From Candidatus Saccharimonadota bacterium (GTDB taxonomy: Archaea > Micrarchaeota > Micrarchaeia > Micrarchaeales > Micrarchaeaceae), in the NCBI GenBank assembly GCA_021654395.1, contig AP024486.1, forward strand, positions 180,001-212,000: a DNA stretch of 32,000 bases. Reading direction: 5' to 3'. The translations under genes were made by a program, and so were the position numbers. The first letter of the stretch is position 1, and every line of letters starts with the position of its first letter. Shown here piece after piece: positions 9,137 through 27,200 of the stretch. A model generated the notes under the pieces. The model searched no databases, had not been told where the DNA came from, and was given only the letters and a program-made list of their open reading frames with translations.

Positions 9137-10870
9137 ATGATACCTTATCTGTTATTTATACCTCTTATAGTTGGGATGCTTATATACTTAGTCTTGCCTA
9201 ATGATAAGGATAGCTTATCTAAGATAGTTGCCATTATAGCATCTTTACTCACTCTTATATTAAATATACTTCTCTATGCAGATCTAAACTCTATATACAC
9301 CATAAGCTGGTTTAGTATATCTAGCTATAGCTTTAATATAGAGCTAACATTCAATTATATAAACTATCTGCTCTCTATAATAGTATCTTTCATAGGCTTT
9401 CTTATAAACATATATGCAGCAGGCTATATAGATAGCTCTTCTAGAAGATTCTTCTTTGAGCTATCATTATTTGAGTTAGGTATGTTGATCTTTGCACTAT
9501 CCTATAGCATATTAGCTCTTCTAATAGGATGGGAGCTTCTAGGTATAAGCAGCTATCTACTTATAGGCTTCTATTATGAAAGAAAGGATGCTGCTTTTTC
9601 TTCAAGAAAGGCCATAACAACAGTAATGCTAGGAGATATATTTCTATTAGTTGGCGTTGCCTTGATATTCTCACAAGGCTTCTCAAGCTTATATGGTATA
9701 ACTGCTGCAGATAATACTGCTATACTATATGGACTAATCTTTATCTTGATAGGAGCATTTACTAAATCTGCACAGTTTCCATTCCATGAATGGTTAAGCG
9801 ATGCGATGTCTGGACCAACTCCTGTATCTGCGTATCTCCATTCATCTACAATGGTTAAGGCAGGAGTCTTCCTAATACTGCTAATGCTACCAGAATATCA
9901 GCTATATAATCTAACAGACCCTATACTTATAATAGGCTTCATATCTGCACTTATAGGAGCTATAAATGCATTATCTGAGAGGCATATTAAGAAGGTATTA
10001 GCTTACTCTACTATAGAGGATCTAGGCTTAATGTTTATAGCCATAGGCCTAAACCTTCCTTATGTAGCATTAGCTCTATTTGTATTTCAGACTTTCTATA
10101 AGGCAGCATTATTCATGTATAGTGGAGTTGTTATAAAGGCCAATGATGATAGAGAAGATATATACAAAGTCAGCGTTGATAAGGGACTTATAGCTAGTAT
10201 CTCTAGCTTAATAGCTGTGCTATCATTAATAGGCATATTCCCACTAAGCGGATACTTTGGAAAGGGATTCCTTTTAGACTCTTCTATTAGATCAATGTCA
10301 ATAGGAGAGTATAGCTATATTGCATTTGCTCTACTTGTCATAATAGAGCTCCTTACATCATTATATATCTTTAGATGGTGGCTTATTCCAAGAAGGAGTA
10401 AGAGCAATAGAAGCAAAGTTAGCAATCTTATGAATGCACCATTTTACATACTTGTTATAATAAATGCATTGGCTTATCCTATCTTCCTTCTATTCTTATA
10501 CTATATAACAGCTAATGGCTACTCTGCTACTTATAGCATAATAAGTATATACACAATTATTGACTATATTATAGCAGGATTAGCTGCGTATCTCTCTTAT
10601 AAGATAGTTAAATCAGGATATGATAAGCATATCATTAGCTTTAAGAGTATAGTGAATAGCTTCTATGCAGCTTTATATAATGCATTAAATGCATTCTCAT
10701 TAGCTTTATCGGTATTTGACTCTTATATATATAGATTCTATCTTTATATATCTAACTTGTTTATAATATTAAGCTCAAAGGTGCCTATTATACAGAATGG
10801 TAGATTAAATACTTATATAGTTATATTTATAATTGGTATTATAATGGTAATAGCAGTGTTAGTTATATGA
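9137..10870 (+). CDS. nuoL: NADH-quinone oxidoreductase subunit L (Mrp-type antiporter-like)
   Basis: FPFHEWLSDAMSGPTPVSAYLHSSTMVKAG signature. 577 aa, polytopic. Confidence 0.9.
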   Translation: MIPYLLFIPLIVGMLIYLVLPNDKDSLSKIVAIIASLLTLILNILLYADLNSIYTISWFSISSYSFNIELTFNYINYLLSIIVSFIGFLINIYAAGYIDSSSRRFFFELSLFELGMLIFALSYSILALLIGWELLGISSYLLIGFYYERKDAAFSSRKAITTVMLGDIFLLVGVALIFSQGFSSLYGITAADNTAILYGLIFILIGAFTKSAQFPFHEWLSDAMSGPTPVSAYLHSSTMVKAGVFLILLMLPEYQLYNLTDPILIIGFISALIGAINALSERHIKKVLAYSTIEDLGLMFIAIGLNLPYVALALFVFQTFYKAALFMYSGVVIKANDDREDIYKVSVDKGLIASISSLIAVLSLIGIFPLSGYFGKGFLLDSSIRSMSIGEYSYIAFALLVIIELLTSLYIFRWWLIPRRSKSNRSKVSNLMNAPFYILVIINALAYPIFLLFLYYITANGYSATYSIISIYTIIDYIIAGLAAYLSYKIVKSGYDKHIISFKSIVNSFYAALYNALNAFSLALSVFDSYIYRFYLYISNLFIILSSKVPIIQNGRLNTYIVIFIIGIIMVIAVLVI

Positions 10871-12279: not shown

Positions 12280-13632
12280 ATGCTAGAAGAGCTTATAGTA
12301 CTTATACCATTAATAGCATCTTTCTTAGATGTATTGCTAATTGCATTTAGAAGATCTTTAGTAAAGTATCTTGCTATTATATCTATACTTCTATTGCTTG
12401 TTATTACCGTTATAGATATAAGAGCTACTGAATCAAGCATTATATATGGTATATTTAAGATTAACCCATTAACTCTTATTATACTCTTAATACTCTATAT
12501 TATACTTTTATTAGATGCTGTAGCTTTCATAGATAGAAGTAAAGAGCTATCAATAATGACTTTATATATAGCTCCATTAACATTTGCTATAATATCTGCT
12601 TCTCTGCCATTATCTATATTGAGTATTGAGCTACTAAGCTTGATACCTATAGTAATGATGGTACTAAATAGGAATATAACGGCAGCAGTAAAGTTCTTTA
12701 TTATAAGTAGCATAGGTATAGGATTGCTGCTATCTGGATTAGCTATAGCTGCTCCTTACTTGAGCCAGTTAAGCTACTCTGAGATAAGCTTTAATCCTAT
12801 ATCATTACTTGCATTAGCTTTAATATTAGCAGGTCTTGGAGTCGAGATCTCTATATGGCCATTTAATCTATGGGTTGCGGACGTTTACTCTGAAGCAGAA
12901 GGAAGGATAACGGCGCTTATAGCAAGCATAAATAAGAAAGTTGCGTTAGTTATACTAATATTTATATTATCCATAGTCTTTAGCAGCTATATGAGCTATA
13001 ATGTAAAGATAGTGGCGCTTCTTGCAACGCTAACTATGTTATTTGGTAATATAGCTGCATTATTTGAGAATAATTTAAAGAAGATCTTTGCCTACTCCTC
13101 TATATCCCAGATGGGCTATATGCTAGTTGGTTTAGCTGCGTTTAACTATATAGGCGTAAGCGGAGTTATATATAACATACTTATACATGGTATATCGATC
13201 TTTGCAATCTTTTTGATACTTGATTATCTTGAGAGATATAAGCTCTATAATGTAGAATCTGTAAAAGGACTTTACTATAATAACAAAGAGATATCGTTAG
13301 CTGCAGTAATACTTATGCTTTCATTTATAGGAGTTCCTCCATTGGCTGGCTTCTATGCAAAGTTCTTACTATTCGGTGGCGCTTTAGACTCTGGCCTCTT
13401 ACTTTTAGTTATTATAGCAATAATAAATAGCTTTATATCTGTTTACTACTATCTAAAGATAATTATAAATATCTTCTCTTCAGATAAAAGATTAAAAGCA
13501 TTAAAGCTTAATATTATAGATAAAGGGGCTATTATTGCAGTTGCTGCTATAATAATAGCCTTAGGGGTATTTCCTAATATTATAGTAGGCACCATTCAAA
13601 ATGCTATACAGAGCTATCTTATGCTCCCATAG
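12280..13632 (+). CDS. nuoN: NADH-quinone oxidoreductase subunit N
   Basis: WPFNLWVADVYSEAEGRITALIASINKKVA signature. 450 aa, polytopic. Last gene of the module. Confidence 0.9.
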   Translation: MLEELIVLIPLIASFLDVLLIAFRRSLVKYLAIISILLLLVITVIDIRATESSIIYGIFKINPLTLIILLILYIILLLDAVAFIDRSKELSIMTLYIAPLTFAIISASLPLSILSIELLSLIPIVMMVLNRNITAAVKFFIISSIGIGLLLSGLAIAAPYLSQLSYSEISFNPISLLALALILAGLGVEISIWPFNLWVADVYSEAEGRITALIASINKKVALVILIFILSIVFSSYMSYNVKIVALLATLTMLFGNIAALFENNLKKIFAYSSISQMGYMLVGLAAFNYIGVSGVIYNILIHGISIFAIFLILDYLERYKLYNVESVKGLYYNNKEISLAAVILMLSFIGVPPLAGFYAKFLLFGGALDSGLLLLVIIAIINSFISVYYYLKIIINIFSSDKRLKALKLNIIDKGAIIAVAAIIIALGVFPNIIVGTIQNAIQSYLMLP

Positions 13633-13695
13633 TCTAGCGGCCAAGGACGCAGCCCTCTCACGGCTGAGACTCGGGTTCAAATCCCGATGGGAGCA
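13623..13695 (+). tRNA. tRNA-Glu (anticodon CTC); no CCA encoded
   Basis: Hand-folded cloverleaf. Acceptor GCTCCCA/TGGGAGC. D stem GTCT/GGAC. Anticodon stem CAGCC/GGCTG with loop CT-CTC-AC. T arm TCGGG-TTCAAAT-CCCGA. Discriminator A. It is a GC-rich island in AT-rich DNA. Confidence 0.85.
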
Positions 13696-13978
13696 TTATC
13701 TATTTTAAACGCTTACTTATCAGATTGTCAATTGGAAAAATGCCAATTATAACTTTTATAGTTATTATTTCTATTGATATAAAGAAAATATTAAATGACA
13801 ATAGAAGACAGCCACAACTTATTTATTGAGCTTGAGCTTTAGAGAAGAATAAGGATGTATATCTAATATTAGATATTCTTACTATTCTTAAATCTAAAGC
13901 AGCTTGATGTAATGATTAAACATTAAAGAAGAGTAATTTAAATATATAAAATCTATTTAAGTTTAATAGGTTAATTCT

Positions 13979-14956
13979 ATGAATATAATAATACCAAGAA
14001 AGTTAGAAAGATGATCAAATATAAGAGTAATAGCACCATCAAATAGCATGGCAATCATATCTGAGGATGTTAGATCAATAGCAAAGCAGAGACTTGAAGA
14101 TATGGGTTATAAGGTATCTTTGGCAAGCATGTAGAAGAGTCTAATGAGTTCAATTATGCAAGCATAGAATCAAGAGTAGAGGATCTTATTAAGCATTTTA
14201 AGACCCTACTGTTGATAGCATATTAACAGTTATAGGAGGATATAATGCAAATTAGCTTTTAGATTACATAGATTTTGAAGTAATAAAGAGAAATCCGAAG
14301 ATACTCTGTGGATATTCTGATATAACTATATTAAATGATTCAATACTTAAGAAAACAGGTTTAATTACATACTATGGGCCCAATTTTCAACATTTGGAAT
14401 GCTTAAAGGGATAGATTATACCATAGAGTATTTTAATAGATGTTTAGCTCAAGATAAGCCATTTAATATAATTCCGGCAGAGGAATGGAGCGATGATGAA
14501 TGGTATATAGACCAAGAAAGATGCAACTTCATAAAGAATAATGGATTCTTGCTTATACATGAAGGCGAGGCAGAAGGAAAGATAGTAGGAGGTAATCTAT
14601 CAACACTTTCATTGCTACAAGGAACTGAATATATGCCTAGCTTAAAAGATAGTATACTATTTATAGAAGACGATGAAGGGGTTAGCCCAAGAGTATTTGA
14701 TAGATAATTGCAATCATTACTACAGCAAGAAGCAGAAGGCATAAAGGCTTTAGTTATAGGAAGATTTCAAAATGCATCTGGTATAACTGATGAAGTATTA
14801 AAGAAGATTATTAACAATAAAAGAGAGCTTGCTAATATTCCTGTTATTGCTAATGTAGACTTTGGCCACACTACACCACAGATAACATTTCCTATTGGAG
14901 TTACAGTTAAAGTAATCTCTGAAGATAATCCACAAATCGAGATTCGTATTCATTAA
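13979..14956 (+). pseudogene. Decayed peptidase S66 (LD-carboxypeptidase / MccF-like) gene
   Basis: Family motifs are recoverable only by hopping between frames: [33 protein letters not shown] (nucleophile Ser), GGNLSTLSLLQGTEYMP, LFIEDDEG, DFGHTTPQITFPIG. There are at least 3 frameshifts and at least 2 in-frame stops. Track ORFs 14399..14707 and 14708..14956 are fragments of it. Confidence 0.8.
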
Positions 14957-15154
14957 CTTTTTATTTATAACCAGAGTGGCTTTTTAGATGGCTAATCATT
15001 ATTTTAGTTGCTACTGAAGCTTTATATGATATTAGAACTACAGTTTATCTAATAGATTTAATAAAATTAAAGAAGATTTAGATATAAAGAATTATTTAGT
15101 ATTTTATATTGGAATCCTTAAATCAACTTATCTCAAATTTACATCGAAGAAAAA

Positions 15155-15164
15155 TTTAAAAATA
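15155..15164 (+). promoter_or_regulatory. TATA-like box upstream of cas6 (near-leaderless cas operon start)
   Basis: TTTAAAAATA centred about 25 nt upstream of the cas6 ATG. No Shine-Dalgarno sequence is seen. Confidence 0.3.
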
Positions 15165-15184
15165 TTTTATCTCATATATTACTT

Positions 15185-15931
15185 ATGTTTCCTTACTCAA
15201 GAATAGTAGTAACATTTAGAGCTTTAGATCCAAATTTTACTTCTTCTAATCTATTCTATAATCATAATTATCCATTTTATTCAACAATATTGAGTATAAT
15301 AAAGAGTGAAGATCAAGAGTTATCTAAGGAGATACATGAAAATAAATATAAGAGAGCTTTCCTATTTTCAAACATTATACCTACTAAACGTAGGAACGAA
15401 TTTAGAATATTTATAACGAGCCAGCATAAAAAGATACAACAAGCTATAGCTAACGGCTTCTCAAGACTTAGCACGAGTAGACCTTTAATAATTTATTATG
15501 AAGGTTCTCAATACCTCTTTTCAATAAATAACGTTAATATTCAAAGCTTTTCTATATCAGATAAGAATAATACTTACAGATTCAACTTCCTTTCTTATTT
15601 TATACTTAGAGGTGAAGATGGAAAACCTATAGAGCCTAAAGATGACTCAGAATTTTCAATATACATAAAAGAAAGCTTGCTTAGAACTGTAAGAAGTATA
15701 GGAATTAAAGATGAATTTGATTTAAGGATAAACGGTAGTTGTTCTTTTAAGAAAAAGCTAATAAAAATAAAGCATGAGTTTTATAGAGCGTGGTCTGCAG
15801 CATCTCCTAAAAAAACTATTGAGATATCTGGTAGCGAGTTAGTTGCAGCTAGTGCTTTGTATCTAGGTATTGGCGATAAGACAAAGATGGGATTCGGAAT
15901 GCTTGGCATAGAGAAAGGTGCTATAGAATGA
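15185..15931 (+). CDS. cas6: Cas6 crRNA endoribonuclease
   Basis: First gene of the cas operon. C-terminal glycine-rich loop LGIGDKTKMGFGMLGI is typical of Cas6. 248 aa. Confidence 0.8.
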   Translation: MFPYSRIVVTFRALDPNFTSSNLFYNHNYPFYSTILSIIKSEDQELSKEIHENKYKRAFLFSNIIPTKRRNEFRIFITSQHKKIQQAIANGFSRLSTSRPLIIYYEGSQYLFSINNVNIQSFSISDKNNTYRFNFLSYFILRGEDGKPIEPKDDSEFSIYIKESLLRTVRSIGIKDEFDLRINGSCSFKKKLIKIKHEFYRAWSAASPKKTIEISGSELVAASALYLGIGDKTKMGFGMLGIEKGAIE

Positions 15932-17382
15932 GGCTTAATGCTATAATTAATAACACTAAAGAAGAAGCACTCTTAATACTTAAATCTTTATATCCTGAAA
16001 AATCTAGAGAAGATTTAGAAAATGAGGTTGAAAACGAGCTTAATGAAATTAAAGAAAAAGCAAATGAGATTAAAAACGAATATTTTGGTGGAAACAAAGA
16101 TATCTTCAAGAATAGATATACTTATTTATATTCAATAATAAGCTATATTGCAGTTTCGATAAGAGAGGAAAATCTTGGAAAACTTTTTAATAGGAAAGGT
16201 TATAAAACGAATGACCCAAATAATCATATAAAAGACTTCTTACCAAAGAACGCTATTATTCTAGATCCAAAAGAAATCAAATCTCCATCTACGTTACAGC
16301 CTTATATTAAGAGCTTTACTGACTATCTTTTCTACCTCTTTTTGATAAACCCATTAATAAAACCATCAATTAAAATTAATACGAGCAAAAGAAGTAGGAA
16401 TAAGCAGAAAGACGAACTTTACTGTATTGCTTGTGGTAGAAGTGAAACAAAGCTATTTAATCCAGTATTCTTTGCTAAGTTATCAAATGCTACAAATCTA
16501 ATAGTAAATACTGTAAAAGGTAATCCATTAGATCTTGTATGCTTTAGCTGCAACTTTTGGATTTTTATATCTGATTTTATATTGGCTAACAGGCACAAGG
16601 TAGATACGAGTTTTATTTATTATGCCCTTTTATCAGGAGATGGTAAATATATATCTATTGAAAATACCCTAGAAAGATTTGTAAAGGAGTATTCAATTAA
16701 CAGAAGCGCTGACCTTGAGATACTATTTTTTATTAAAGAAAAAGGAAATAAGAATGATACTTTCTTAGGCCAAGCTAGATTTAACATAATGCCAAGATTG
16801 GCTGAGATATATGAAAATGAGCCCAAAAGAATAAAGAACTTTCTTAAATCTTTCCTTTTCACGGGTGAAGTTGAAGAGCACATTAGAAATGGTATTATTA
16901 AACAAAAAGAGGATGTATATATTAAAAGGAATATCCTAGATCTTCTCAGCTTTATAGAAACAGGTTTTATACCAGATGATTTATTTATATTATTTAATGA
17001 ATATATGCGTGAGAATTACGATAGATCCTCTAAGAAATCAAGGATATTTAAAGATTTTAAATATTTTCTAGTGGTATATATGAATAACGAAGAAAAGAAT
17101 TATATAAAAGAAGGCCTTAAATTTGCTAAAAGTTTGAAAAACTCAGTTAAAGATGAGGATGAAAAAGAAAGTATGAAAAAGTACATAATTTCAATTTCTG
17201 CTGTAATGGAGTCTAGCGGGACAGAGTTCTTAAGGCAAATGAATACTATTTTAAGAATGTACAAGCCAGTTATTGATGAATCTGATGAGATGACTGAAAA
17301 TCTTATAAATATAGCAAATAATAAAAGATATCTGAGCGAATTTGTAACAGGGTTGCTTTTAGGATTATCTACTAATGAATAA
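15928..17382 (+). CDS. cas8b: Type I-B large subunit Cas8b (Csh1-like)
   Basis: Position between cas6 and cas7, with an ATGA overlap onto cas6. 484 aa. Cys pairs CIACGR...CFSCNFW. The call rests mainly on synteny. Confidence 0.65.
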   Translation: MRLNAIINNTKEEALLILKSLYPEKSREDLENEVENELNEIKEKANEIKNEYFGGNKDIFKNRYTYLYSIISYIAVSIREENLGKLFNRKGYKTNDPNNHIKDFLPKNAIILDPKEIKSPSTLQPYIKSFTDYLFYLFLINPLIKPSIKINTSKRSRNKQKDELYCIACGRSETKLFNPVFFAKLSNATNLIVNTVKGNPLDLVCFSCNFWIFISDFILANRHKVDTSFIYYALLSGDGKYISIENTLERFVKEYSINRSADLEILFFIKEKGNKNDTFLGQARFNIMPRLAEIYENEPKRIKNFLKSFLFTGEVEEHIRNGIIKQKEDVYIKRNILDLLSFIETGFIPDDLFILFNEYMRENYDRSSKKSRIFKDFKYFLVVYMNNEEKNYIKEGLKFAKSLKNSVKDEDEKESMKKYIISISAVMESSGTEFLRQMNTILRMYKPVIDESDEMTENLINIANNKRYLSEFVTGLLLGLSTNE

Positions 17383-17392
17383 GTGATGGGAT

Positions 17393-18901
17393 ATGCCTAG
17401 AAAAAATGAAGAGAGTGAAGAAAGTGAAGAAATAAAGAGCGTAGTGAATTTTGGTGATTTTAGAAAAGTAAACGCACCAGTTTCCTTTAAAAAAGGCACA
17501 GTAGTAGCAATTTACTATTCCCTACCTTCAAACCAAAATGGAGGAGGAAGCTCTGGAACCAACGTAATAACGCAGAAAGTAATTCCTTTCGGAAAAGATG
17601 AAATGAGAGTTTATGTAAGTCCATTTGCATTAAAAAGGAGAATTCGCGACTATTGGATAAGGCTAAATGATGAAAAAGTTAAAGTTTATTTAAGAGAATC
17701 TAGAGAAGTTCTTGAAAGAGAGAAAAGTACAGGATCTGAAAAGGATAACAATAAGCAACAGAATAGCTCGGCTAGTCAAAATGGCGCGTCTATGGGTACA
17801 CAATTACAGAAAAATGGAAATAATACTGATAATAAAAACAATTTAAGCAACCTTATAGAAGAATATATAGATATTGATCTATTTGGTTATATGAAAGCTG
17901 AAAGTAGAAAAGCACCAGCACTTACAAGGCCAGGTCCAATTACTACTTGGGGAGCAATATCATTAGAACCCTTTGTGGCTTTTGTTGATTTTAATACTTC
18001 AGTAGAATCGACAACAGGATCAAGTGAAGGAGGTTCCATAATAAATAGGTACATATCAACAAACTTTTATTTCACTTCTTTCTTTATTAATACAGATCTT
18101 ATATCTATTGATATGTCAGATGTAGAAAAGAAGGCCAGTAATAAAATGGAAGATAAATTTAAAGATGAAGAACGCGATAAAATATTAAATAAGAGAAAAG
18201 AAAGACTCAAGTACTTCTTTGAAGGTGTAAAGTATGCTATGCAGAAAGAGGTAGGAGGTCCTAGAGATAGACCAGAATGCGTATTTCTAGCAGTAGAAGT
18301 AACAGAAAACCATTATGGACACTTTGATAAATGGATCCTTAAAAATGCAAAAATAGTAGATGTAAATTCTGAGAAACAAGATAATAATAAAGAAGATGCG
18401 AATAGAGAAGACATAAAGGTAAAAATTGATTTTTCTAATTTAAATAAATCAGAACATGGTGACATATATATATTAGTATGCGATGAGAATTATGTAAAAT
18501 TAAGTTGTGGTAATAATGAATTAGACCGTGAAAAATTAATTAATTGCAACGAAAATGGAAATCAAAGTAGCAATGCTAATAAATGGCCTAAGTTTGCAGA
18601 TATAAAAACAGTAGTCGATTTCCTAGTAGGTAAAATAGAGATTACAAAAGATGAGCTTGCTTTAATTAAAAAACTTATTAACATGAAACCTACAGAAAGA
18701 ACAGTAAGTGATATAGAAAAGATGCTTAATGATAATGAGAAAGAGACGCTAAAGGAGCTTATAAAAGAAGGCTTTGTTATAAGATTTAAGAAAGCAAATG
18801 AAGATGAAGAGCACTACACAATACCAGAAGCGGTATATAAAGCAATAAATAAAGAAGAGTATAAATTACTTGACAATAAAAATAATGGAGAGTCTGTTTA
18901 G
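17393..18901 (+). CDS. cas7: Cas7 backbone subunit (Csh2-like), unusually long with a C-terminal extension
   Basis: N-terminal SNQNGGGSSGTN...VSPFALKRRIRDYW, and IDIDLFGYM, the D-x-LFGYM motif of Cas7. 502 aa, against my recollection of roughly 300-350 aa for typical I-B Cas7. Confidence 0.85.
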   Translation: MPRKNEESEESEEIKSVVNFGDFRKVNAPVSFKKGTVVAIYYSLPSNQNGGGSSGTNVITQKVIPFGKDEMRVYVSPFALKRRIRDYWIRLNDEKVKVYLRESREVLEREKSTGSEKDNNKQQNSSASQNGASMGTQLQKNGNNTDNKNNLSNLIEEYIDIDLFGYMKAESRKAPALTRPGPITTWGAISLEPFVAFVDFNTSVESTTGSSEGGSIINRYISTNFYFTSFFINTDLISIDMSDVEKKASNKMEDKFKDEERDKILNKRKERLKYFFEGVKYAMQKEVGGPRDRPECVFLAVEVTENHYGHFDKWILKNAKIVDVNSEKQDNNKEDANREDIKVKIDFSNLNKSEHGDIYILVCDENYVKLSCGNNELDREKLINCNENGNQSSNANKWPKFADIKTVVDFLVGKIEITKDELALIKKLINMKPTERTVSDIEKMLNDNEKETLKELIKEGFVIRFKKANEDEEHYTIPEAVYKAINKEEYKLLDNKNNGESV

Positions 18902-18930
18902 CAGAACAATAAATAATAAGACAGATTGTT

Positions 18931-19689
18931 ATGAATCTAGAAGATTATTTTATTTTTGATATAAAATTAGATTCTTATTTAGCTATGTTTAAGGACAAAA
19001 GAACAGCTACTACTAGAGTATCGCATTTGATACCAAATAAAAGTCAGATTATAGGAATGCTTTTAGCAAAGCTTGGCTTTATAAAGTCATATACTCTAGG
19101 TGACCTATTCGATAAAAATCAGATTCATACCTATAAAAATTTTAATGGCAATAACCTCTTCAATATAAAGTATGCAATAAAAGTAAATATGAGCGGCAGT
19201 TCTACGATAAAAAGATTTCTAGATTACGTAAATTTTGTGGGCGTAGGCAAATATTCTAAGCTTATTGTTTCTCCAGTTTATATAGACTATATAGTCAGTC
19301 CGTCTTATGAAATAGTGATATTTATTCCAAGGAATCTAGATATACTAAGTAAAGAAAAGGATCACCTACTAGACAAAAACTATGAGATGTGTAAGATCTA
19401 CTTTGGTACTAATGAATGTCCTGCCCATATAGAAGAGATTAATGAAATCAGCTACGATGCTATAAATAAGGAAACGGGTCAGATCTCTACAGAATTTGTA
19501 TTACCAAGGTCTAGTATAAAAGAAGTATTATCTGATAACTCCAATTTCATAATAGAAGAGATTGAAGATTCTGAAGGTAAAAATCAGATGAAGGAAGTTA
19601 TAGTGCCTATTGGATCTAAAGTTAAAGTTAACTTAAATGAAGATATTGAATGCTTTAAATATAAAGATTATAGTTTCGTGGTTTTATGA
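18931..19689 (+). CDS. cas5: Cas5 subunit
   Basis: N-terminal Cas5 motif ...KDKRTATTRVSHLIPNKSQIIGMLLAKLGF. Position between cas7 and cas3. Confidence 0.75.
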   Translation: MNLEDYFIFDIKLDSYLAMFKDKRTATTRVSHLIPNKSQIIGMLLAKLGFIKSYTLGDLFDKNQIHTYKNFNGNNLFNIKYAIKVNMSGSSTIKRFLDYVNFVGVGKYSKLIVSPVYIDYIVSPSYEIVIFIPRNLDILSKEKDHLLDKNYEMCKIYFGTNECPAHIEEINEISYDAINKETGQISTEFVLPRSSIKEVLSDNSNFIIEEIEDSEGKNQMKEVIVPIGSKVKVNLNEDIECFKYKDYSFVVL

Positions 19690-22577
19690 TGATAGGGGAT
19701 TATTACCTTGCAGGAAAAAATCAGACGCTTGCTGAACATCTTGTAGACACTGGAAGGAATTCTGGAGAACTAGCAAAGAGCTATAGTGAAAAATATATTA
19801 GCTCGATCAAAAAAAGCAGATATATTAATATACCTGATGAAGCTTTAGATAAATTACCAGAGTTGTTTAGTACTTATGGCTCTTTGGTGGGATTTTTACA
19901 TGATTTTGGAAAAGTATCACGCAGATTCCAGTGTAATTTAAAAAGGCATTATAAAATTTGGCCAATCAGTAAAATAAAAGAAGAAGATAATAAACAGAAA
20001 ATAAAAAAAGAAGATAATAAACAGAAAAGCAATGACTCTAAAGGTATAACCAAACGTTCAAAAGTGGAATTATACAATATTCAAATTGATATTTTGAATG
20101 CCAGAAGAGTAGCAGAGCTTAAAAGTAAACTAAAACGCGGATATACAAAGTTTAGGCACCCAATAGCTGCGCTACCCGTAGTATACTTCTTCCTTAACAT
20201 TTTAACCTTAGAGCCACTAGAAGATTTAAAAAACAAACTTACTGAAAAGGATCAGATGCTTGCTGAACATCTGAAAGAGATATTTGATGCTTGTGCTCTT
20301 CTAGCTATATACTTTCACCATAATGAAATTAATTTGTCAACATTATATAACGATGTGCTTCGTTTAAGTAGCGAGAAAAATTATGATGATTATCTTACTC
20401 TTTCAGAAGAAGAAGTTAAAATTGGCTTTGAAATAGTAAGAAATCATATAAAAGAAGCAGTAAAAAATATTAAAGATGAAGATATAAAGAAGATATCTAT
20501 AGAAGAATTTAATAAATTTATAGGATTAGACACAAGTAGCAGCTTCAAAGAAAAGTATAAAGAGAAGCTTAAGAGAATACTTTTAGATATTATTAAAGAA
20601 AAGTTTTTAGCTTATAGCATTGATAATATTTCAGACCTTATGCTAGGGAAGGAGATCCTAACTATTCTTTACTCTAGTTTAATAGAGGGAGATTGGACCT
20701 CATCCTCTAAAAGGATTAAAGATGATATTAACAATAGACCTCAGGATAATATATGCTTTAATGAACTTTATGAGCGCTTAAAAAGCAAATTAGAAGAACT
20801 TAAAATTAAAGAAACAAATTCAGAGGTATCTACTATTAGACAAGAAATAACGCATGCTATTGATTCTAGCAAAGGCAATAAGATTATATTGACTGCTCCT
20901 ACAGGTATAGGAAAAACAGAGATATCTTTACTATGGGCGCTTAAAAAAGCACATGAAATCGATGCAAAAAAGATAATCTATGTTTTGCCTTTAAAAGCGC
21001 TTATAGAAGATATATATGAAAGACTTAAAAAATATTTTGGAGAAGGAGATATTATAAATAGATGGGATTCTGATGGTGAAATCGATCTACTTGAGTCTGT
21101 ACAAAAAGAGTTAGAAGATAAAAAACCAGATGATAAAAAAACTGAAAGCAGTGATTTATTTAACTTTCTAAAAGTAGCAAGAAAATATTTCCTTAAGGGC
21201 AAAATAATTATAACAACAGCCGATCAGATCTTAATGACATACCTAAATAACGGAAGATATGCAATTAGATATGGTATGTTCTATGACTCAGTTTTTGTTT
21301 TTGATGAAATACAAAATTACGGCTCTACTATAAGAAATCTCTTATATCATTTTATTAATGATGTTCCAAGGGCTTACTTAATAATGACTGCAACACTACC
21401 TGTAGAGTTAAAGAAGTTAGGTAAAAAGCTAATAGATTTTGACGAACTTATAGAAAACGATAAATGGTTGGAATTTCATAAATATAGAGATGCTAGCATA
21501 TCTACATATAAAGAGAGTATAGATGTATATCTAAACTCTTCTTATGAAGATATATTATCATCCCTTAAAGAAGACTTAAAGAATAAAGATATAAACCGCA
21601 TTGCTGTAGTGGTTAACACTATTAGCGAAGCCTTAGAGTTATATAATAAAATTAAAAAAGATATAAACGAAGAGATAGAAAAAGGTAATGTAAATATATC
21701 TCTTCTGCATTCTGAAATGCTTAAAGATGATAAAGACAAAGTTCTAAAGTCATTCTTAGAAGATAAAAAGACAACGCAATTATCTAACTCAAGTAATTCA
21801 GATACTATCTCAGCGAACCAGAAAAGGATATTGGTCTCTACGCAAGTAATAGAAACCGGGGTAAATATATCTTTTGATAAGATGTATAGACTAATAGCTC
21901 CTTTGCAGTCTATTGTGCAGTCTATGGGAAGAGTTCATAGATTTGATGAAAATAATAAACCTTTTGAATTTGTAATACTTTACCCTTCTCATGAAGAGAA
22001 AGACAAAGATAAAGAAAGCAAAGACAAAGATAAAGAAAATAAGAAAAGTAATGAAGGCTTAAATAAAGATATTTTTGAACCTTATCCTATGGAAGATGTC
22101 TATACTTCACTAAATTTTATTAAAAGTATCGAAAATGAAGGAGTTAAAAGTAAATTCGACTTCGAAAAGAAAGTTGAAGAATATATATTAAACCAGTTTA
22201 AAGAGGAATCGTTTTACATAGAGTATGATTACTTTAAGCCTATACTTGCTAAAGTAAAAGCAAGCGTTTGGACTACTTCCAGTGTAGAAGAGATATTAGG
22301 AACAAATCTAAGAGAGATTTCTAATAGAGTGCCTGCTTTTGTAGGAAGTGAAGAAGAGTATAAAGAACTACGTAATAAAATTGCAAGTAAAAAAGATAAC
22401 CTTACAGAAGACGACGTAAGAGATTTATTGGAATTCAAGAAGAGGTTTATCAATATAAACAAATGGGGTATTAAGTTTATGAACTACATGATTAAGCCCA
22501 AGTCTGTAATAGAAGGAGGTTACGTATTAGACGAGGAAGCGTATAATGTTTTAGCAGGTAAACCAACAAAAATATAA
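19686..22577 (+). CDS. cas3: Cas3 fusion of HD nuclease and SF2 helicase
   Basis: HD domain motifs LAEHLVDTG and GFLHDFGK. Helicase motif I LTAPTGIGKTE, motif II VFDEIQ, motif VI QSMGRVHR. 963 aa. Confidence 0.9.
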   Translation: MMIGDYYLAGKNQTLAEHLVDTGRNSGELAKSYSEKYISSIKKSRYINIPDEALDKLPELFSTYGSLVGFLHDFGKVSRRFQCNLKRHYKIWPISKIKEEDNKQKIKKEDNKQKSNDSKGITKRSKVELYNIQIDILNARRVAELKSKLKRGYTKFRHPIAALPVVYFFLNILTLEPLEDLKNKLTEKDQMLAEHLKEIFDACALLAIYFHHNEINLSTLYNDVLRLSSEKNYDDYLTLSEEEVKIGFEIVRNHIKEAVKNIKDEDIKKISIEEFNKFIGLDTSSSFKEKYKEKLKRILLDIIKEKFLAYSIDNISDLMLGKEILTILYSSLIEGDWTSSSKRIKDDINNRPQDNICFNELYERLKSKLEELKIKETNSEVSTIRQEITHAIDSSKGNKIILTAPTGIGKTEISLLWALKKAHEIDAKKIIYVLPLKALIEDIYERLKKYFGEGDIINRWDSDGEIDLLESVQKELEDKKPDDKKTESSDLFNFLKVARKYFLKGKIIITTADQILMTYLNNGRYAIRYGMFYDSVFVFDEIQNYGSTIRNLLYHFINDVPRAYLIMTATLPVELKKLGKKLIDFDELIENDKWLEFHKYRDASISTYKESIDVYLNSSYEDILSSLKEDLKNKDINRIAVVVNTISEALELYNKIKKDINEEIEKGNVNISLLHSEMLKDDKDKVLKSFLEDKKTTQLSNSSNSDTISANQKRILVSTQVIETGVNISFDKMYRLIAPLQSIVQSMGRVHRFDENNKPFEFVILYPSHEEKDKDKESKDKDKENKKSNEGLNKDIFEPYPMEDVYTSLNFIKSIENEGVKSKFDFEKKVEEYILNQFKEESFYIEYDYFKPILAKVKASVWTTSSVEEILGTNLREISNRVPAFVGSEEEYKELRNKIASKKDNLTEDDVRDLLEFKKRFININKWGIKFMNYMIKPKSVIEGGYVLDEEAYNVLAGKPTKI
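19977..20030 (+). repeat. In-frame 27-nt tandem duplication inside the cas3 HD region (KEEDNKQKI/KKEDNKQKS)
   Basis: AAAGAAGAAGATAATAAACAGAAAATA followed directly by AAAAAAGAAGATAATAAACAGAAAAGC. 24 of 27 nt identical. Confidence 0.9.
21999..22040 (+). repeat. In-frame 21-nt tandem duplication inside the cas3 C-terminal region (KDKDKES/KDKDKEN)
   Basis: AAAGACAAAGATAAAGAAAGC followed by AAAGACAAAGATAAAGAAAAT. Confidence 0.9.
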
Positions 22578-22597
22578 AAAGATTAAGGAAGAAAGCG

Positions 22598-23131
22598 ATG
22601 ATCAAGGTGAAGGAGGAGAGTTTATCTGATATAGAATTTAACGATATAAGTGGTGTAGAGGTACAGTACTACTTTACATGTAAAACAGAGTTATGGTTAT
22701 TTTCACATCAAATTCTTTATACAAATGAAGATGAAAATGTCTTAATAGGAAGATTATTGCATGAGAGTAAATATAAAAGAAAGAAGAAAGAGCTTTCTAT
22801 AAATAGAAGCAAGCTTGATGTATTTAATGTAGATCCTTATCTAATCTATGAATTAAAGAAAAGTAAGATAACTGAAGGAGATATCTATCAGCTAAAGTTT
22901 TATTTATACCAAGTCTATTTAGCAACTAATAAAAAACCAAAAGGAGTTATAATAACAAAAGGCTTTAGAAGATTAATAGAGCTTAGTGATGAAGATATAA
23001 AAACAATTGAAAGCGCATTAGAAGATATTAAAATAATTAAGTCTTTAGACGTTCCTCCAAAGCCAGAGTATAAAAAGATATGCAGACTCTGCTCTTATAG
23101 AAGATTCTGCTTTGGAGATATATATGAGTAA
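22598..23131 (+). CDS. cas4: Cas4 RecB-like nuclease with a 4-Cys Fe-S cluster
   Basis: N-terminal Cys (YYFTCKTE) plus the C-terminal CRLCSYRRFC. Nuclease motifs D...ELK (DPYLIYELKK) and QLKFY. Confidence 0.85.
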   Translation: MIKVKEESLSDIEFNDISGVEVQYYFTCKTELWLFSHQILYTNEDENVLIGRLLHESKYKRKKKELSINRSKLDVFNVDPYLIYELKKSKITEGDIYQLKFYLYQVYLATNKKPKGVIITKGFRRLIELSDEDIKTIESALEDIKIIKSLDVPPKPEYKKICRLCSYRRFCFGDIYE

Positions 23132-24083
23132 AAAGAACTTATACATATTTAAAGATGGAGCTATAAGACTAAAGAATACTACATTATACCTAATAACTAA
23201 AGAAGAAAAGATACCACTGCAAATAGAGCAGATAAGAAGCATATACTTTATAGGCTCTGGATCTATATCAACTAAAGTTCTACAGAGATTCAAAGAGCTT
23301 GGCATATTAATACATTTTTATGATAGATTCGGTAATTATATAGGAACTTTCTATCCAAAGGATAATCTTATATCTGGAGAGATCTTACTAAGACAAGCTA
23401 AAGCAGCAATAGATATTAATTCTAGATTGAGATTTGCAAAGCTATTTGTGACTGGTGCAATGAAGAACATAAATTGGATACTAGATAGATTTGGGCTAGA
23501 TCAGTTAGAAATAAAAGACATTAGCAATATATCTAATATAAATGAACTTATGCAAGCTGAGGGCTTGTTTAGAAGAATGTTTTATGATAAATTAGACTCT
23601 AAATTGCCTGATGAATTTAAGATAGTTAAGAGAGAGATGCATCCACCATCAAATAGAGGTAATGCGCTATTAAGCTTTCTAAACTCTTTAGTCTATAACC
23701 TCGTTACAACTGAAATCTATTATACTCATTTAAACCCTTCTATCTCCTATCTACATGAACCATTTGAAAGAAGATTCTCGTTGAGCTTAGATGTTGCTGA
23801 GATATTTAAACCTTTACTAAGTGAAAGATTAATCTTAAGATTATGCGATCTAAAGCAGCTAGATCCAGTAGCAGATTTTGAAGATAATGAGGGCTTATTC
23901 TTAAGCAAATTAGGATTGAAGAAAGTTGTTAAAGCATTTGATGATGAGATATCTAAAACAATACAATTTAGAACTAAAAATAAGAACGTTACAATAAGGC
24001 AGCTTGTCCGTATAGAGCTATATAAGATAGAAAAGGATCTCTTAGGAATAAAGGAGTATAAGCCATTAGTATGTTGGTGGTAA
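23124..24083 (+). CDS. cas1: Cas1 integrase
   Basis: MSKKNLYIFKDGAIRLKNTTL..., and SYLHEPFERRFSLSLDVAEIFKP (the conserved H..E...SL.LD..E.F.P region). I prefer the ATG at 23124, which overlaps the cas4 stop by 8 nt, to the track's TTG at 23112. Confidence 0.9.
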   Translation: MSKKNLYIFKDGAIRLKNTTLYLITKEEKIPLQIEQIRSIYFIGSGSISTKVLQRFKELGILIHFYDRFGNYIGTFYPKDNLISGEILLRQAKAAIDINSRLRFAKLFVTGAMKNINWILDRFGLDQLEIKDISNISNINELMQAEGLFRRMFYDKLDSKLPDEFKIVKREMHPPSNRGNALLSFLNSLVYNLVTTEIYYTHLNPSISYLHEPFERRFSLSLDVAEIFKPLLSERLILRLCDLKQLDPVADFEDNEGLFLSKLGLKKVVKAFDDEISKTIQFRTKNKNVTIRQLVRIELYKIEKDLLGIKEYKPLVCWW

Positions 24084-24084
24084 T

Positions 24085-24357
24085 TTGTTTGTTATTGTTG
24101 TTTATGATATAAGTTCAGTTAGATTACAAGGAAGAATCAGAAACTTCTTGAGAAGATTTCTAAATCATATTCAGCTATCAGTATTTGATGGTGAGTTAGA
24201 TCCTTCACAGGCTAAGGAGATTGAGCTGTTCTTAAAGGATCAGAATTATAACGATGGTGAATATACTATTATGTATACAATTAGCTTTCATGGAAAAGTT
24301 GATAGAAACATATTTGGTAAACCGAAAGATTTAAGATATGATGAGAACATAATATAG
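24085..24357 (+). CDS. cas2: Cas2
   Basis: 90 aa. The N-terminal beta strand MFVIVVYDIS carries the conserved Asp. It lies directly after cas1 and before the array. Confidence 0.85.
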   Translation: MFVIVVYDISSVRLQGRIRNFLRRFLNHIQLSVFDGELDPSQAKEIELFLKDQNYNDGEYTIMYTISFHGKVDRNIFGKPKDLRYDENII

Positions 24358-24435
24358 TATTATACATTTGCACAAAAATAGGTTTGTAGCAATTTTTAAT
24401 TGTGTTTTACCAAAATGTATTCGAAGCTGCGGCTG
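24358..24435 (+). promoter_or_regulatory. Putative CRISPR leader (only 78 nt between the cas2 stop and repeat 1)
   Basis: AT-rich with a TATA-like TTTTTAATTG. Its position next to cas2 and the repeat orientation (3' end ...ATGTAAAC) both argue for plus-strand transcription. Confidence 0.45.
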
Positions 24436-25537
24436 GTATAAAATCATACAGAGATGGATGTAAACCCTCAGCTTCCAAGCTTACCCAGAAGCGCAAACAA
24501 CAGTATAAAATCATACAGAGATGGATGTAAACTGTGGTATACCTTTGCAAATGTATTTGATTAATGTAGTCTGTATAAAATCATACAGAGATGGATGTAA
24601 ACTAGGTTCCAGCTGTATAACTATTTGAATATACTAAAAGTATAAAATCATACAGAGATGGATGTAAACATATATAGCATTACTATAGAGCCATTTATAC
24701 TTGGCGTATAAAATCATACAGAGATGGATGTAAACGAGTTGTAGATATCATACTTAACTCGTCGTCAGATAGGTATAAAATCATACAGAGATGGATGTAA
24801 ACATGAATCTCTCAATGCTGATAATCATGAATTCCTATACTATTAGTATAAAATCATACAGAGATGGATGTAAACTTGCAATTTAATTTGTGAATTTAAT
24901 ATTATTATTTTGTATAAAATCATACAGAGATGGATGTAAACTTAGGTTCAGATGCTATCTCTATATCATGATTTAAATGCATAAAATCATACAGAGATGG
25001 ATGTAAACTTCTATATAAGCTATTTTTTATGTTTTTTTATTTTGTATAAAATCATACAGAGATGGATGTAAACCAGTTCCAATACTCGATATAGGATTTA
25101 CTTCGCATAAGTATAAAATCATACAGAGATGGATGTAAACTCGCAGACATTCTTTCATATGATTCCACTGAGATTTGTATAAAATCATACAGAGATGGAT
25201 GTAAACTTGGCATAACAATCAATTAGTAATATATAAAGGAAGAGTATAAAATCATACAGAGATGGATGTAAACGCGGTTGTAAGCATAGTGCAAAACATA
25301 AAGGTATAAGTATAAAATCATACAGAGATGGATGTAAACGATATAACAGTAAAGCTAAATCCTACATTAAGCATAGTATAAAATCATACAGAGATGGATG
25401 TAAACTCTGTTATTTTCATTCCTTTCATACCTCCTCCTCTCGTATAAAATCATACAGAGATGGATGTAAACACATATTACTAGATGCTAACCGCTCTAAA
25501 ATGGATAGTATAAAATCATACAGAGATGGATGTAAAC
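24436..25537 (+). CRISPR. CRISPR array: 17 repeats of 30 nt (GTATAAAATCATACAGAGATGGATGTAAAC) and 16 unique spacers
   Basis: Repeat starts counted by hand: 24436, 24503, 24573, 24640, 24706, 24773, 24846, 24912, 24979, 25044, 25111, 25177, 25244, 25310, 25376, 25442, 25508. Spacer lengths: 37, 40, 37, 36, 37, 43, 36, 37, 35, 37, 36, 37, 36, 36, 36, 36 nt. All repeats are identical except repeat 9 (24979), which has T2>C (GCATAAAATC...). Confidence 0.97.
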
Positions 25538-25567
25538 TAAGCATCACTCAAATAATTGTCAATAGTA

Positions 25568-25577
25568 TTAAATATAT
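25568..25577 (+). promoter_or_regulatory. TATA-like box upstream of the array-embedded mini-ORF
   Basis: TTAAATATAT centred about 32 nt upstream of the ATG at 25605. This is compatible with a leaderless or very short-leader archaeal mRNA. AT-rich motifs are common here, so the support is weak. Confidence 0.25.
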
Positions 25578-25604
25578 TACCTGTGTTATTATTATTTAGA
25601 GTAT

Positions 25605-25784
25605 ATGAGATGGCATTGGTTGGTAATAAGCTCCTTTGTGATTCTGTTGTTTGGTCTAAGTATGGGGAGTTGGAATTCGATAGTAGGTGGGTTTCTGAGT
25701 TTAATGGGCTTTGTCGTGTTTGGAATGGGCTTAGGCTACCTCCTAGCGGAGCATATCCTGAAGAAGGAGCAGAAATCAAATTAG
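25605..25784 (+). CDS. Candidate 59-aa two-TM glycine-rich mini-protein embedded in the CRISPR array (not in the ORF track)
   Basis: My own translation: MRWHWLVISSFVILLFGLSMGSWNSIVGGFLSLMGFVVFGMGLGYLLAEHILKKEQKSN*. It has two hydrophobic helices joined by a 3-4 residue turn, small-xxx-small motifs (GFVVFGMGLG) and a charged C-terminal tail. G+T-rich codons explain the local base skew. This is compositional and structural plausibility only. Two other frames are also open here. Confidence 0.4.
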   Translation: MRWHWLVISSFVILLFGLSMGSWNSIVGGFLSLMGFVVFGMGLGYLLAEHILKKEQKSN

Positions 25785-25822
25785 ATGTGGTGTAGTCTCC
25801 GCTTAAAGCATAACCTCCTCTG

Positions 25823-25852
25823 GTATAAAATCATACAGAGATGGATGTAAAC
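25823..25852 (+). CRISPR. 18th, perfect CRISPR repeat, separated from repeat 17 by 285 nt
   Basis: Exact copy of GTATAAAATCATACAGAGATGGATGTAAAC, 40 nt upstream of the photolyase ATG. Confidence 0.95.
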
Positions 25853-25892
25853 GGAGATATTTAATTAAATTAACTTCTTCATTAATGATTTA

Positions 25893-27200
25893 ATGAGAAG
25901 CATATTCTTATTTCATAGAGATCTTAGACTAGAAGACAATTCTGCTTTAATAAGAGCATTAAAAGAGAGTGAAGAAGTACTTCCATTATTTATAATTGAT
26001 CCTAGACAAGTAGAAGATAATGAATACAAATCTCTTTATGCAATAGGCTTTATGATAGACTCATTAATAGATCTAGATAATGAATTAAAGAAGCATAACT
26101 CTAAGCTACATGTCTTAAAAGGAATTGCAGAAGAGATATTACCAAAGATAGCGTATGAATTAAATATTGAAAGAGTGTACTTTAATGAAGATTATACACC
26201 ATTTAGCATAAAGAGAGACTCCTCTATAAAAGAGAGATTTAAAGGAGAAGTTATAACTGAAGAAGATTATTTACTAGTAAAGAAAAACTTCTTTATAAAT
26301 AAAGGAAAGCCTTACTCAGTATTTACTCATTTCTATAAAGATGCTTTAAATTTAGATATAAGAAAACCTATACAGAATAGATATAATAATTATATTAAAG
26401 CAGATCTTCCAGGCATAGAGATACTAAGAGACATAAAATATGAAAGACCAGCATTAAAAGGAGGCAGAAATGAAGCGTTAAAGCTTCTTGAAAGAGCTAG
26501 AAGCATAGATTATAGACTTAGAAATATTCCAGCTGCAAATGCAACAACTATGCTTTCAGCATATATAAAGTTTGGTTGTATATCTATAAGAGAGGCTTTT
26601 CATAACCTTAATGATTCTATAAAAAGACAGCTCTTCTGGAGGGACTTTTATACATTATTGGCTTATTATAATCCACATGTATTTGGACATGCTTATAAGA
26701 GAGAGTATGAAAATATAAGATGGAACTATGATGAAAAGCTATTTGAGGCTTGGAAGAATGGATTAACAGGCTATCCTATTATAGATGCAGGAATGAGAGA
26801 GCTTAATCAGACAGGCTATATGCATAACAGAGTAAGAATGATTGCAGCATCATTCTTGGTTAAGGTATTGCATATAGACTGGCGCTTAGGAGAGAGATAC
26901 TTTGCTACTAAGCTTGTTGATTATGATCCTTCTGTAAATAATGGAAACTGGCAGTGGGTTGCTTCTACAGGAGCAGATTACATGTTTAGATTATTTAATC
27001 CATGGATACAACAGAAGAAGTTTGATCCTAATGCAGATTATATAAAGAGGTGGGTACCGGAGCTTAAGGATCTAGAGCCAGATGTAATTCATAATATATA
27101 TAATTATAACATAGATAATTATCCAAAGCCTATAGCAGACTATTATAAAGAGATAAAGACAGCTAAGCAGCTTTATGGAATATATAATAGGAGCTATTAA
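25893..27200 (+). CDS. phr: Deoxyribodipyrimidine photolyase (class I CPD photolyase/cryptochrome family)
   Basis: FLFHRDLRLEDNSAL, WRDFY, TGYPIIDAGMRELNQTGYMHNRVRMIAASFLVK, DYDPSVNNGNWQWVASTG. Confidence 0.9.
   Translation: MRSIFLFHRDLRLEDNSALIRALKESEEVLPLFIIDPRQVEDNEYKSLYAIGFMIDSLIDLDNELKKHNSKLHVLKGIAEEILPKIAYELNIERVYFNEDYTPFSIKRDSSIKERFKGEVITEEDYLLVKKNFFINKGKPYSVFTHFYKDALNLDIRKPIQNRYNNYIKADLPGIEILRDIKYERPALKGGRNEALKLLERARSIDYRLRNIPAANATTMLSAYIKFGCISIREAFHNLNDSIKRQLFWRDFYTLLAYYNPHVFGHAYKREYENIRWNYDEKLFEAWKNGLTGYPIIDAGMRELNQTGYMHNRVRMIAASFLVKVLHIDWRLGERYFATKLVDYDPSVNNGNWQWVASTGADYMFRLFNPWIQQKKFDPNADYIKRWVPELKDLEPDVIHNIYNYNIDNYPKPIADYYKEIKTAKQLYGIYNRSY

Follow-up and report, generated by a model that had tools for sequence, protein, structure and literature searches.

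A foreign gene for a predicted membrane mini-protein lies between the last two repeats of a type I-B CRISPR array in the DPANN archaeon Microcaldus variisymbioticus ARM-1

The 32,000-nt stretch of DNA analysed here (the window) belongs to Microcaldus variisymbioticus ARM-1 (Candidatus Micrarchaeota, DPANN), a symbiotic archaeon, and carries a cas operon followed downstream by a CRISPR array (Table 1). NCBIfam models matched Cas6, Cas7/Cst2/DevR (BCS90755.1), Cas3' with its HD domain, Cas4, Cas1b (above the curated cutoff) and Cas2 (BCS90760.1); the ORFs at the cas8b (15928–17382) and cas5 (18931–19689) positions matched no NCBIfam family at E ≤ 0.01 and are, judged by their place in the operon, very divergent putative Cas8b and Cas5 subunits. 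The presence of Cas1b, Cas2, Cas4, Cas3, Cas7/Cst2 and Cas6 beside an array identifies the locus as type I-B, the subtype also assigned in the genome paper, which describes it as unique among cultivated Micrarchaeota and is silent on the interior of the array (PMC8784108). The HD domain of Cas3 carries a long insertion, with residues 15–341 aligning to a 178-position model. Upstream of the operon, a tRNA gene (13623–13695) is followed by approximately 1.5 kb of nearly gene-free DNA up to cas6, and the sole content of this gene-poor stretch is a fragment of an LD-carboxypeptidase C-terminal domain (14399–14707); the region (13623–15185 with the tRNA gene) may be the edge of an island carrying the CRISPR–Cas locus.

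Table 1 Features of the ARM-1 CRISPR–Cas locus and of the interval between its last two repeats (window coordinates).
Feature	Position	Strand	Description
Type I-B cas operon	15185..24357	+	Order cas6-cas8b-cas7-cas5-cas3-cas4-cas1-cas2; array downstream
Leader	24358..24435	+	78 nt, from cas2 stop to repeat 1
CRISPR array	24436..25852	+	18 repeats of 30 nt, GTATAAAATCATACAGAGATGGATGTAAAC; 17 identical, repeat 9 with one change
Spacer 9	25009..25043	+	Nearly pure A/T; T6, T7 and T4 runs on transcribed strand
Repeat 17	25508..25537	+	Perfect copy; left border of insert
'Spacer 17' insert	25538..25822	+	285 nt between repeats 17 and 18
Upstream region homologous to relatives' loci	25553..25604	+	Defined by alignments; includes TATA-like box
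Two-TM helical-hairpin gene	25605..25784	+	59 aa; GYLLAEH C-terminal motif, then basic tail
Deposited CDS ARM1_0218 (BCS90761.1)	25610..25795	+	61 aa, MALVGNKLL...KLDVV; frame +2 relative to real gene
Stop codon to repeat 18	25785..25822	+	38 nt; GC 0.47, no T5 run, not conserved with homologues
Repeat 18	25823..25852	+	Perfect copy; last repeat; right border of insert
Deoxyribodipyrimidine photolyase gene (BCS90762.1)	25893..27200	+	First gene past array

The position of the leader sets the orientation of the array on the forward strand. Spacers 1–16 are 35–43 nt long, and the sole variant repeat, repeat 9 (24979–25008), reads GCATAAAA... where the others read GTATAAAA.... The terminal repeat is perfect, which is unusual for a leader-distal repeat and suggests that the array is young. 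Spacer 9 resembles an archaeal terminator placed in mid-array and might truncate the pre-crRNA. Spacer 15 (25406–25441) and the 38 nt that precede repeat 18 share the ending ...CATA(A)CCTCCTC..., which is a Shine–Dalgarno sequence plus ATG in reverse complement; in spacer 15, this ending suggests that the protospacer came, in antisense, from the beginning of a gene.

The interval between repeats 17 and 18 is flanked by intact repeats, as an ordinary spacer is, but at 285 nt it lies far outside the 35–43 nt range. Its GC content is 0.39 overall and 0.43–0.45 in the core, against approximately 0.30 in the surroundings. The initial annotation had pointed to a G+T skew and a high GC3 and had noted that the gene looks imported, a view borne out here: the ORF has a GC of 0.43, a GC3 of 0.55 and a G+T of 0.64, compared with 0.28–0.32, 0.21–0.27 and 0.46–0.54, respectively, for host genes in the window (n = 10), and this foreign composition argues that the gene was imported. 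The GC content of the ARM-1 genome is 34.1% and that of its Metallosphaera host 47.1% (PMC8784108). A scan of positions 25538–25822 found no site with at least 17/30 identity to the repeat, and window-wide counts equalled the shuffle expectation, which rules out a hidden degenerate repeat that divides the 285 nt into spacers of normal size. Neither terminal inverted repeats nor a convincing target duplication mark the ends of the insert, where the only pairs found were weak and AT-rich or else short and attributable to chance. The insert contains neither a transposase ORF nor a mobility gene, and insertion of a MITE or an IS is also rejected.

Within the interval, the segment homologous to relatives' loci, comprising promoter and ORF, spans about 232 nt (~25553–25784). 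To its left 15 nt remain and to its right 38 nt, and together these 53 nt are longer than any normal spacer in this array. The 38-nt tail could be the remnant of an old spacer or a 3' UTR. A 10-nt inverted repeat with 90% complementarity (25796–25805, TCTCCGCTTA, versus 25848–25857, TAAACGGAGA) pairs this 3' flank of the mini-gene with the junction of repeat 18 and the trailer, and may be due to chance.

A 59-codon frame opening at the ATG at 25605, lying inside the array and sense to the crRNAs, had been proposed initially to encode a protein with two hydrophobic helices, small-residue motifs and a Lys/Glu tail. The frame is present with the identical sequence, it falls in the interval between repeats 17 and 18 in the orientation set by the cas operon and leader, its product has the small-residue motifs and a Lys-rich tail, and two analyses of the product agree with the two helices: hydropathy peaks at residues 8–18 and 29–43, and AlphaFold2, run on a four-sequence alignment, gives a helical hairpin (H3–21 and H25–58; mean pLDDT 80.5). 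The glycine-zipper look of the hairpin is real but generic. The protein would be expected to insert into the cell membrane with both ends cytoplasmic, as the positive-inside rule predicts, which would place the GYLLAEH motif at the cytoplasmic end of helix 2.

When the insert is shuffled, 4% of the shuffles contain an ATG-initiated ORF of at least 59 codons, and in the insert itself another frame holds an overlapping ORF of 61 codons; thus, the length of the ORF is only weakly beyond chance, and its status as a gene is decided by homology. The single sequence matched nothing in a word-indexed search of 5.8 billion proteins, and an exhaustive phmmer search of 1.84 billion representatives returned one, P0001 (91 aa; E = 5e-6; 47–51% identity across the whole query), which is hypothetical protein LVQ95_02425 from a Candidatus Micrarchaeales metagenome-assembled genome (MAG; NCBI). 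Two more proteins, P0002 (61 aa) and P0013 (77 aa; E = 1.3e-6), were recovered with profiles. The real phmmer scores of 42.5, 33.4 and 31.5 bits compare with maxima of 16.5, 11.6 and 17.8 bits among 500 shuffles that preserved the transmembrane architecture and the composition of each helix. A scan of GTDB genomes yielded a lone 18-residue match in a Clostridia MAG (L004), which is spurious; the JGI metagenomes, searched with the family profile and the exact repeat, showed neither the mini-protein nor the repeat, and a sequence search of the PDB gave no match.

The four members (59–91 aa) each have two hydrophobic helices, rich in Gly and small residues. GYLLAEH closes helix 2 without variation in all of them, and beyond it comes a basic tail, which is longer in P0001 and P0013. 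The N-terminus is M-[RKN] in all four, and the family signature takes the form M-[RK]-W. Frame 0 is the only frame open at all four loci (ARM-1 and three homologues); the +1 frame has 7–12 stops, and the +2 frame, open in ARM-1, has three stops in each homologue. Identity by codon position follows the order 2 > 1 > 3 in six of six pairs, dS is saturated (≥1.2) and dN is 0.45–0.77. The initial annotation had named coding conservation among homologues as the check that would bear on the gene's reality, and had offered a conserved RNA structure or another frame as the alternative. Three homologues share frame 0 with dN below saturated dS, the other frames are interrupted in the homologues, and the minimum free energy of the RNA (z = +1.5) shows no unusual folding and speaks against a structured-RNA reading. 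This comparative evidence makes the ORF a genuine gene that codes for protein in the frame first proposed, and the gene belongs to a very small, uncharacterised and previously unrecognised family of roughly 60–90-aa two-TM proteins.

The gene had been described as unannotated, which holds for the true frame, in which no CDS is deposited, but not for the position, where the GenBank CDS ARM1_0218 overlaps it in another frame. Because the ARM1_0218 frame contains three stops in every homologous locus, the deposited call is mis-framed, and the annotated alternative is ruled out as the true gene. The published ARM-1 proteome search used the deposited, mis-framed proteome (PMC11329633), and the true product therefore could not have been found in it. 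Trypsin is also expected to release just one peptide from the protein, of approximately 50 hydrophobic residues, and its detection would be all but impossible. For an imported gene, the wrong frame can be chosen by a caller trained on an AT-rich genome, and the present analysis corrects such a call in one of the few cultivated DPANN archaea while defining a tiny family of membrane mini-proteins.

Upstream of the gene, a TATA-like box (TTAAATATAT, 25570–25579) lies 26–35 nt before the ATG, in keeping with the box of about 32 nt upstream that had been noted from the sequence, and it is conserved in homologues. TTAAATAT and the bases downstream of it align with L006 and L002: ARM-1 TTAAATATATTACCTG...TATTATT corresponds to L006 TTAAATATTCCACCTG...TATTATT, and L002 has GTATTAAGTAT at the position of ARM-1 GTATTAAATAT. 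L005 and L006 share the sequence context of the start codon with ARM-1, and comparison with the homologous loci shows no DNA conservation past the stop codon. From the spacing of archaeal TATA boxes, we predict a leaderless or very short-leader mRNA, most likely transcribed from the gene's own promoter.

Archaeal RNA polymerase terminates at oligo-T. Between the stop codon (25784) and the ATG of the photolyase gene (25893) every T run is shorter than five; hence, the transcript should enter repeat 18, where Cas6 could cut it. The T6 and T7 runs of spacer 9, on the other hand, should reduce leader-driven read-through to the distal end of the array, which makes the gene's own promoter the likelier driver and weakens the idea of a pre-crRNA that doubles as mRNA. 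Release of an mRNA by Cas6 cuts at repeats 17 and 18 would nevertheless be geometrically possible, given the positions of the two repeats.

The homologous genes occupy ordinary surroundings. In L002 (20 kb), the mini-gene lies between a gene for a pilin-like Gly-rich protein, itself preceded by that for MetRS, and the gene for MCM; in L005 (3.3 kb), it comes after PadR and DUF5679 genes; and in L006, L007 and L008, it stands between hypothetical genes and dnaJ. All three homologous loci are free of CRISPR arrays and cas genes, and the suggestion that homologues might recur beside or inside arrays thus finds no instance among them (0/3). The homologues stand alone in apparently chromosomal settings, and no partner gene is kept across the three loci.

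We consider it probable that the ARM-1 gene is a horizontally acquired passenger, lodged in the oldest spacer position of the array and expressed from its own promoter. According to this interpretation, a promoter-plus-ORF cassette of ~232 nt came to rest in the leader-distal, oldest spacer position, most likely through an accident of insertion or recombination and without functional coupling to the array, and any trimming by Cas6 of a transcript that runs into repeat 18 would be a side effect. The GC of the gene (0.43) matches that of the homologues' genes (0.44–0.45; homologous loci, 0.48–0.51), which fits a recent transfer from a higher-GC lineage or from one of its mobile elements. Either some untranslated sequence accompanied an insertion into an earlier spacer 17, or all 285 nt arrived as a unit, in the latter case by over-length integration or by recombination with a repeat-bearing element. 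Since the insert sits directly between perfect repeats and shows no transposon hallmarks, ordinary insertion into a spacer is not demonstrated, and the leftover 53 nt (15 + 38) exceed any normal spacer. We further caution that the arrangement is found in one genome only, that recent arrival and an intact frame do not by themselves make a gene functional in its new genome, and that the sense orientation, the absence of a terminator before repeat 18 and the zipper-like motifs would also fit a tie to the array combined with membrane activity.

An alternative interpretation is that the gene is an intact but functionless hitch-hiker, so recent that it is neutral or silent in ARM-1 and has had too little time to decay. 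Its unameliorated composition, its occurrence in a single genome, the failure to see the mini-protein or the repeat in metagenome collections and the overall youth of the array (17 of 18 repeats identical) are all consistent with this; we nevertheless consider it unlikely, as the promoter is whole, the ORF is complete and L005 and L006 share the start context, although these observations do not separate it from the passenger gene that we favour.

It is also doubtful, and we think distinctly unlikely, that the interval is a giant spacer, a 285-nt fragment integrated by Cas1–Cas2(–Cas4), or acquired by recombination with a repeat-bearing element, that would represent the memory of an invader and not a working host gene. 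Two perfect repeats directly at the borders reproduce the geometry of spacer integration, transposon hallmarks are absent, the interval is foreign in composition for the greater part, the 38-nt tail (GC 0.47) included, and the position is the oldest of the array. However, every other spacer here is 35–43 nt, as would be expected if the Cas1–Cas2 adaptation machinery sizes prespacers, a complete promoter and ORF would be rare in a random 285-nt fragment, and neither the insert nor the gene has a match in IMG/VR or in the collections of phages and plasmids: in these collections, blastn with the 285-nt sequence gave short chance matches only, and IMG/VR yielded nothing when scanned for protein patterns, for the repeat, for the 3' flank or for back-translated GYLLAEH.

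The initial annotation had raised, by analogy with CreTA, a more functional candidate role, that of an array-embedded toxin, addiction or membrane effector. In this reading, a membrane-depolarising toxin would be expressed in step with the type I-B system or held down by it, and loss of cas genes or a block of Cascade or Cas6 would be punished as in CreTA and CrePA. Several features invite this reading, among them the two-TM hairpin with its Gly and small-residue motifs and charged tail, the sense orientation of the gene between intact Cas6 sites, the absence of a terminator ahead of repeat 18 and a weak PHROG holin match in one of the four members (E = 0.0067), and a CRISPR-repressed protein toxin does exist in the Acinetobacter type I-F system (CreP; bioRxiv 10.1101/2024.01.05.574328). 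We consider it improbable because none of the homologues at the three loci is CRISPR-associated, the insert contains no psi-repeat or creA-like element, and the spacers match promoter and ORF no better than chance would (14/20 was the highest score for the first 20 nt of any of the 16 normal spacers against the insert and its borders, equal to the 95th percentile of the null). In addition, Pfam, NCBIfam and PADLOC gave no match for the mini-protein, Foldseek against the PDB returned generic hairpins only (E > 1), and the homologues are solitary in apparently chromosomal settings with no conserved partner gene. On these comparisons of sequence and predicted fold, the toxin or addiction reading is not supported. 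We hold just as little expectation that the mini-gene is a functional part of the array, with Cas6 cuts setting the ends of an mRNA for a membrane-active peptide whose levels would track or require array transcription and the activity of Cas6 or Cascade. If true, it would constitute a protein-based guard or abortive-infection switch within an array, mechanistically distinct from CreTA and CrePA, and an mRNA shaped by Cas6 processing would be a new interplay between array and gene; present evidence does not support this.

A misjoin of foreign DNA into the array during hybrid assembly is very improbable: independent short-read Logan contigs from this organism do break at repeats 1 and 18, one of them beginning within repeat 18, so that the array interior rests on the hybrid assembly, but the insert has perfect repeats at both borders, the co-culture contained only two organisms with no homologue among the host proteins, and the finished circular genome in which it lies, and in which ARM1_0218 is annotated, was built from long and short reads (PMC8784108).

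The locus can be compared with known arrangements in several respects. P0001 (LVQ95_02425), P0002 and P0013 resemble the ARM-1 protein in sequence (47–51% identity), in the hairpin, in GYLLAEH with a basic tail, in gene GC and in a TATA-bearing upstream region, but differ in lying in ordinary gene neighbourhoods with no CRISPR array. Like CreTA of type I-B haloarchaea and CrePA of type I-F Acinetobacter, the ARM-1 locus combines a small, possibly toxic gene with a type I CRISPR–Cas system. Cre modules, however, lie in intergenic regions among cas genes, with a creA mini-CRISPR of the form psi-R, psi-S, psi-R in which psi-S partly matches the toxin promoter beside a PAM (bioRxiv 10.1101/2024.01.05.574328), whereas the ARM-1 gene stands between bona fide repeats, has no psi-repeat and no promoter-matching guide among the spacers of the window, and belongs to a family whose other members have no Cas linkage. 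Small hydrophobic toxins and holins (type I toxin–antitoxin toxins; class II two-TM holins) share its size, hairpin, glycine-zipper-like motifs and charged C-terminus, but the ARM-1 protein has no significant profile or fold match to them and no lysis cassette, and neither endolysin nor phage genes lie nearby; the resemblance is generic and shared with many small membrane proteins that are harmless.

Insertion sequences and MITEs are known to interrupt CRISPR arrays, and the ARM-1 array is similar to arrays of that kind in having foreign DNA between two repeats; it differs in lacking a transposase, inverted repeats and a target-site duplication, and in its payload of a promoter and a 59-codon gene. 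Our search of the literature on genes embedded in arrays found nothing directly comparable. We regard the advance as modest, consisting of an unusual instance of an array broken by foreign DNA, a mini-protein family not recognised before and a corrected gene call. A complete promoter-plus-gene cassette between perfect CRISPR repeats without transposon hallmarks is nonetheless uncommon, and it raises the question of how non-spacer DNA enters arrays, be it by over-length integration, recombination with repeat-bearing elements or illegitimate insertion.

Direct repeats also occur around one of the homologues. In L002, from the Micrarchaeales MAG, the mini-gene is flanked by direct repeats of ~190 nt (9687–9899 and 10353–10545; 94–100% identical), each of which comprises the 3' end of the pilin-like Gly-rich gene and the intergenic region downstream of it. 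These repeats could be the remnant of a tandem paralogue or the signature of an insertion or recombination event. A 751-nt metagenome contig (L003), which circularises through a 37-nt overlap, fits the repeat structure of L002.
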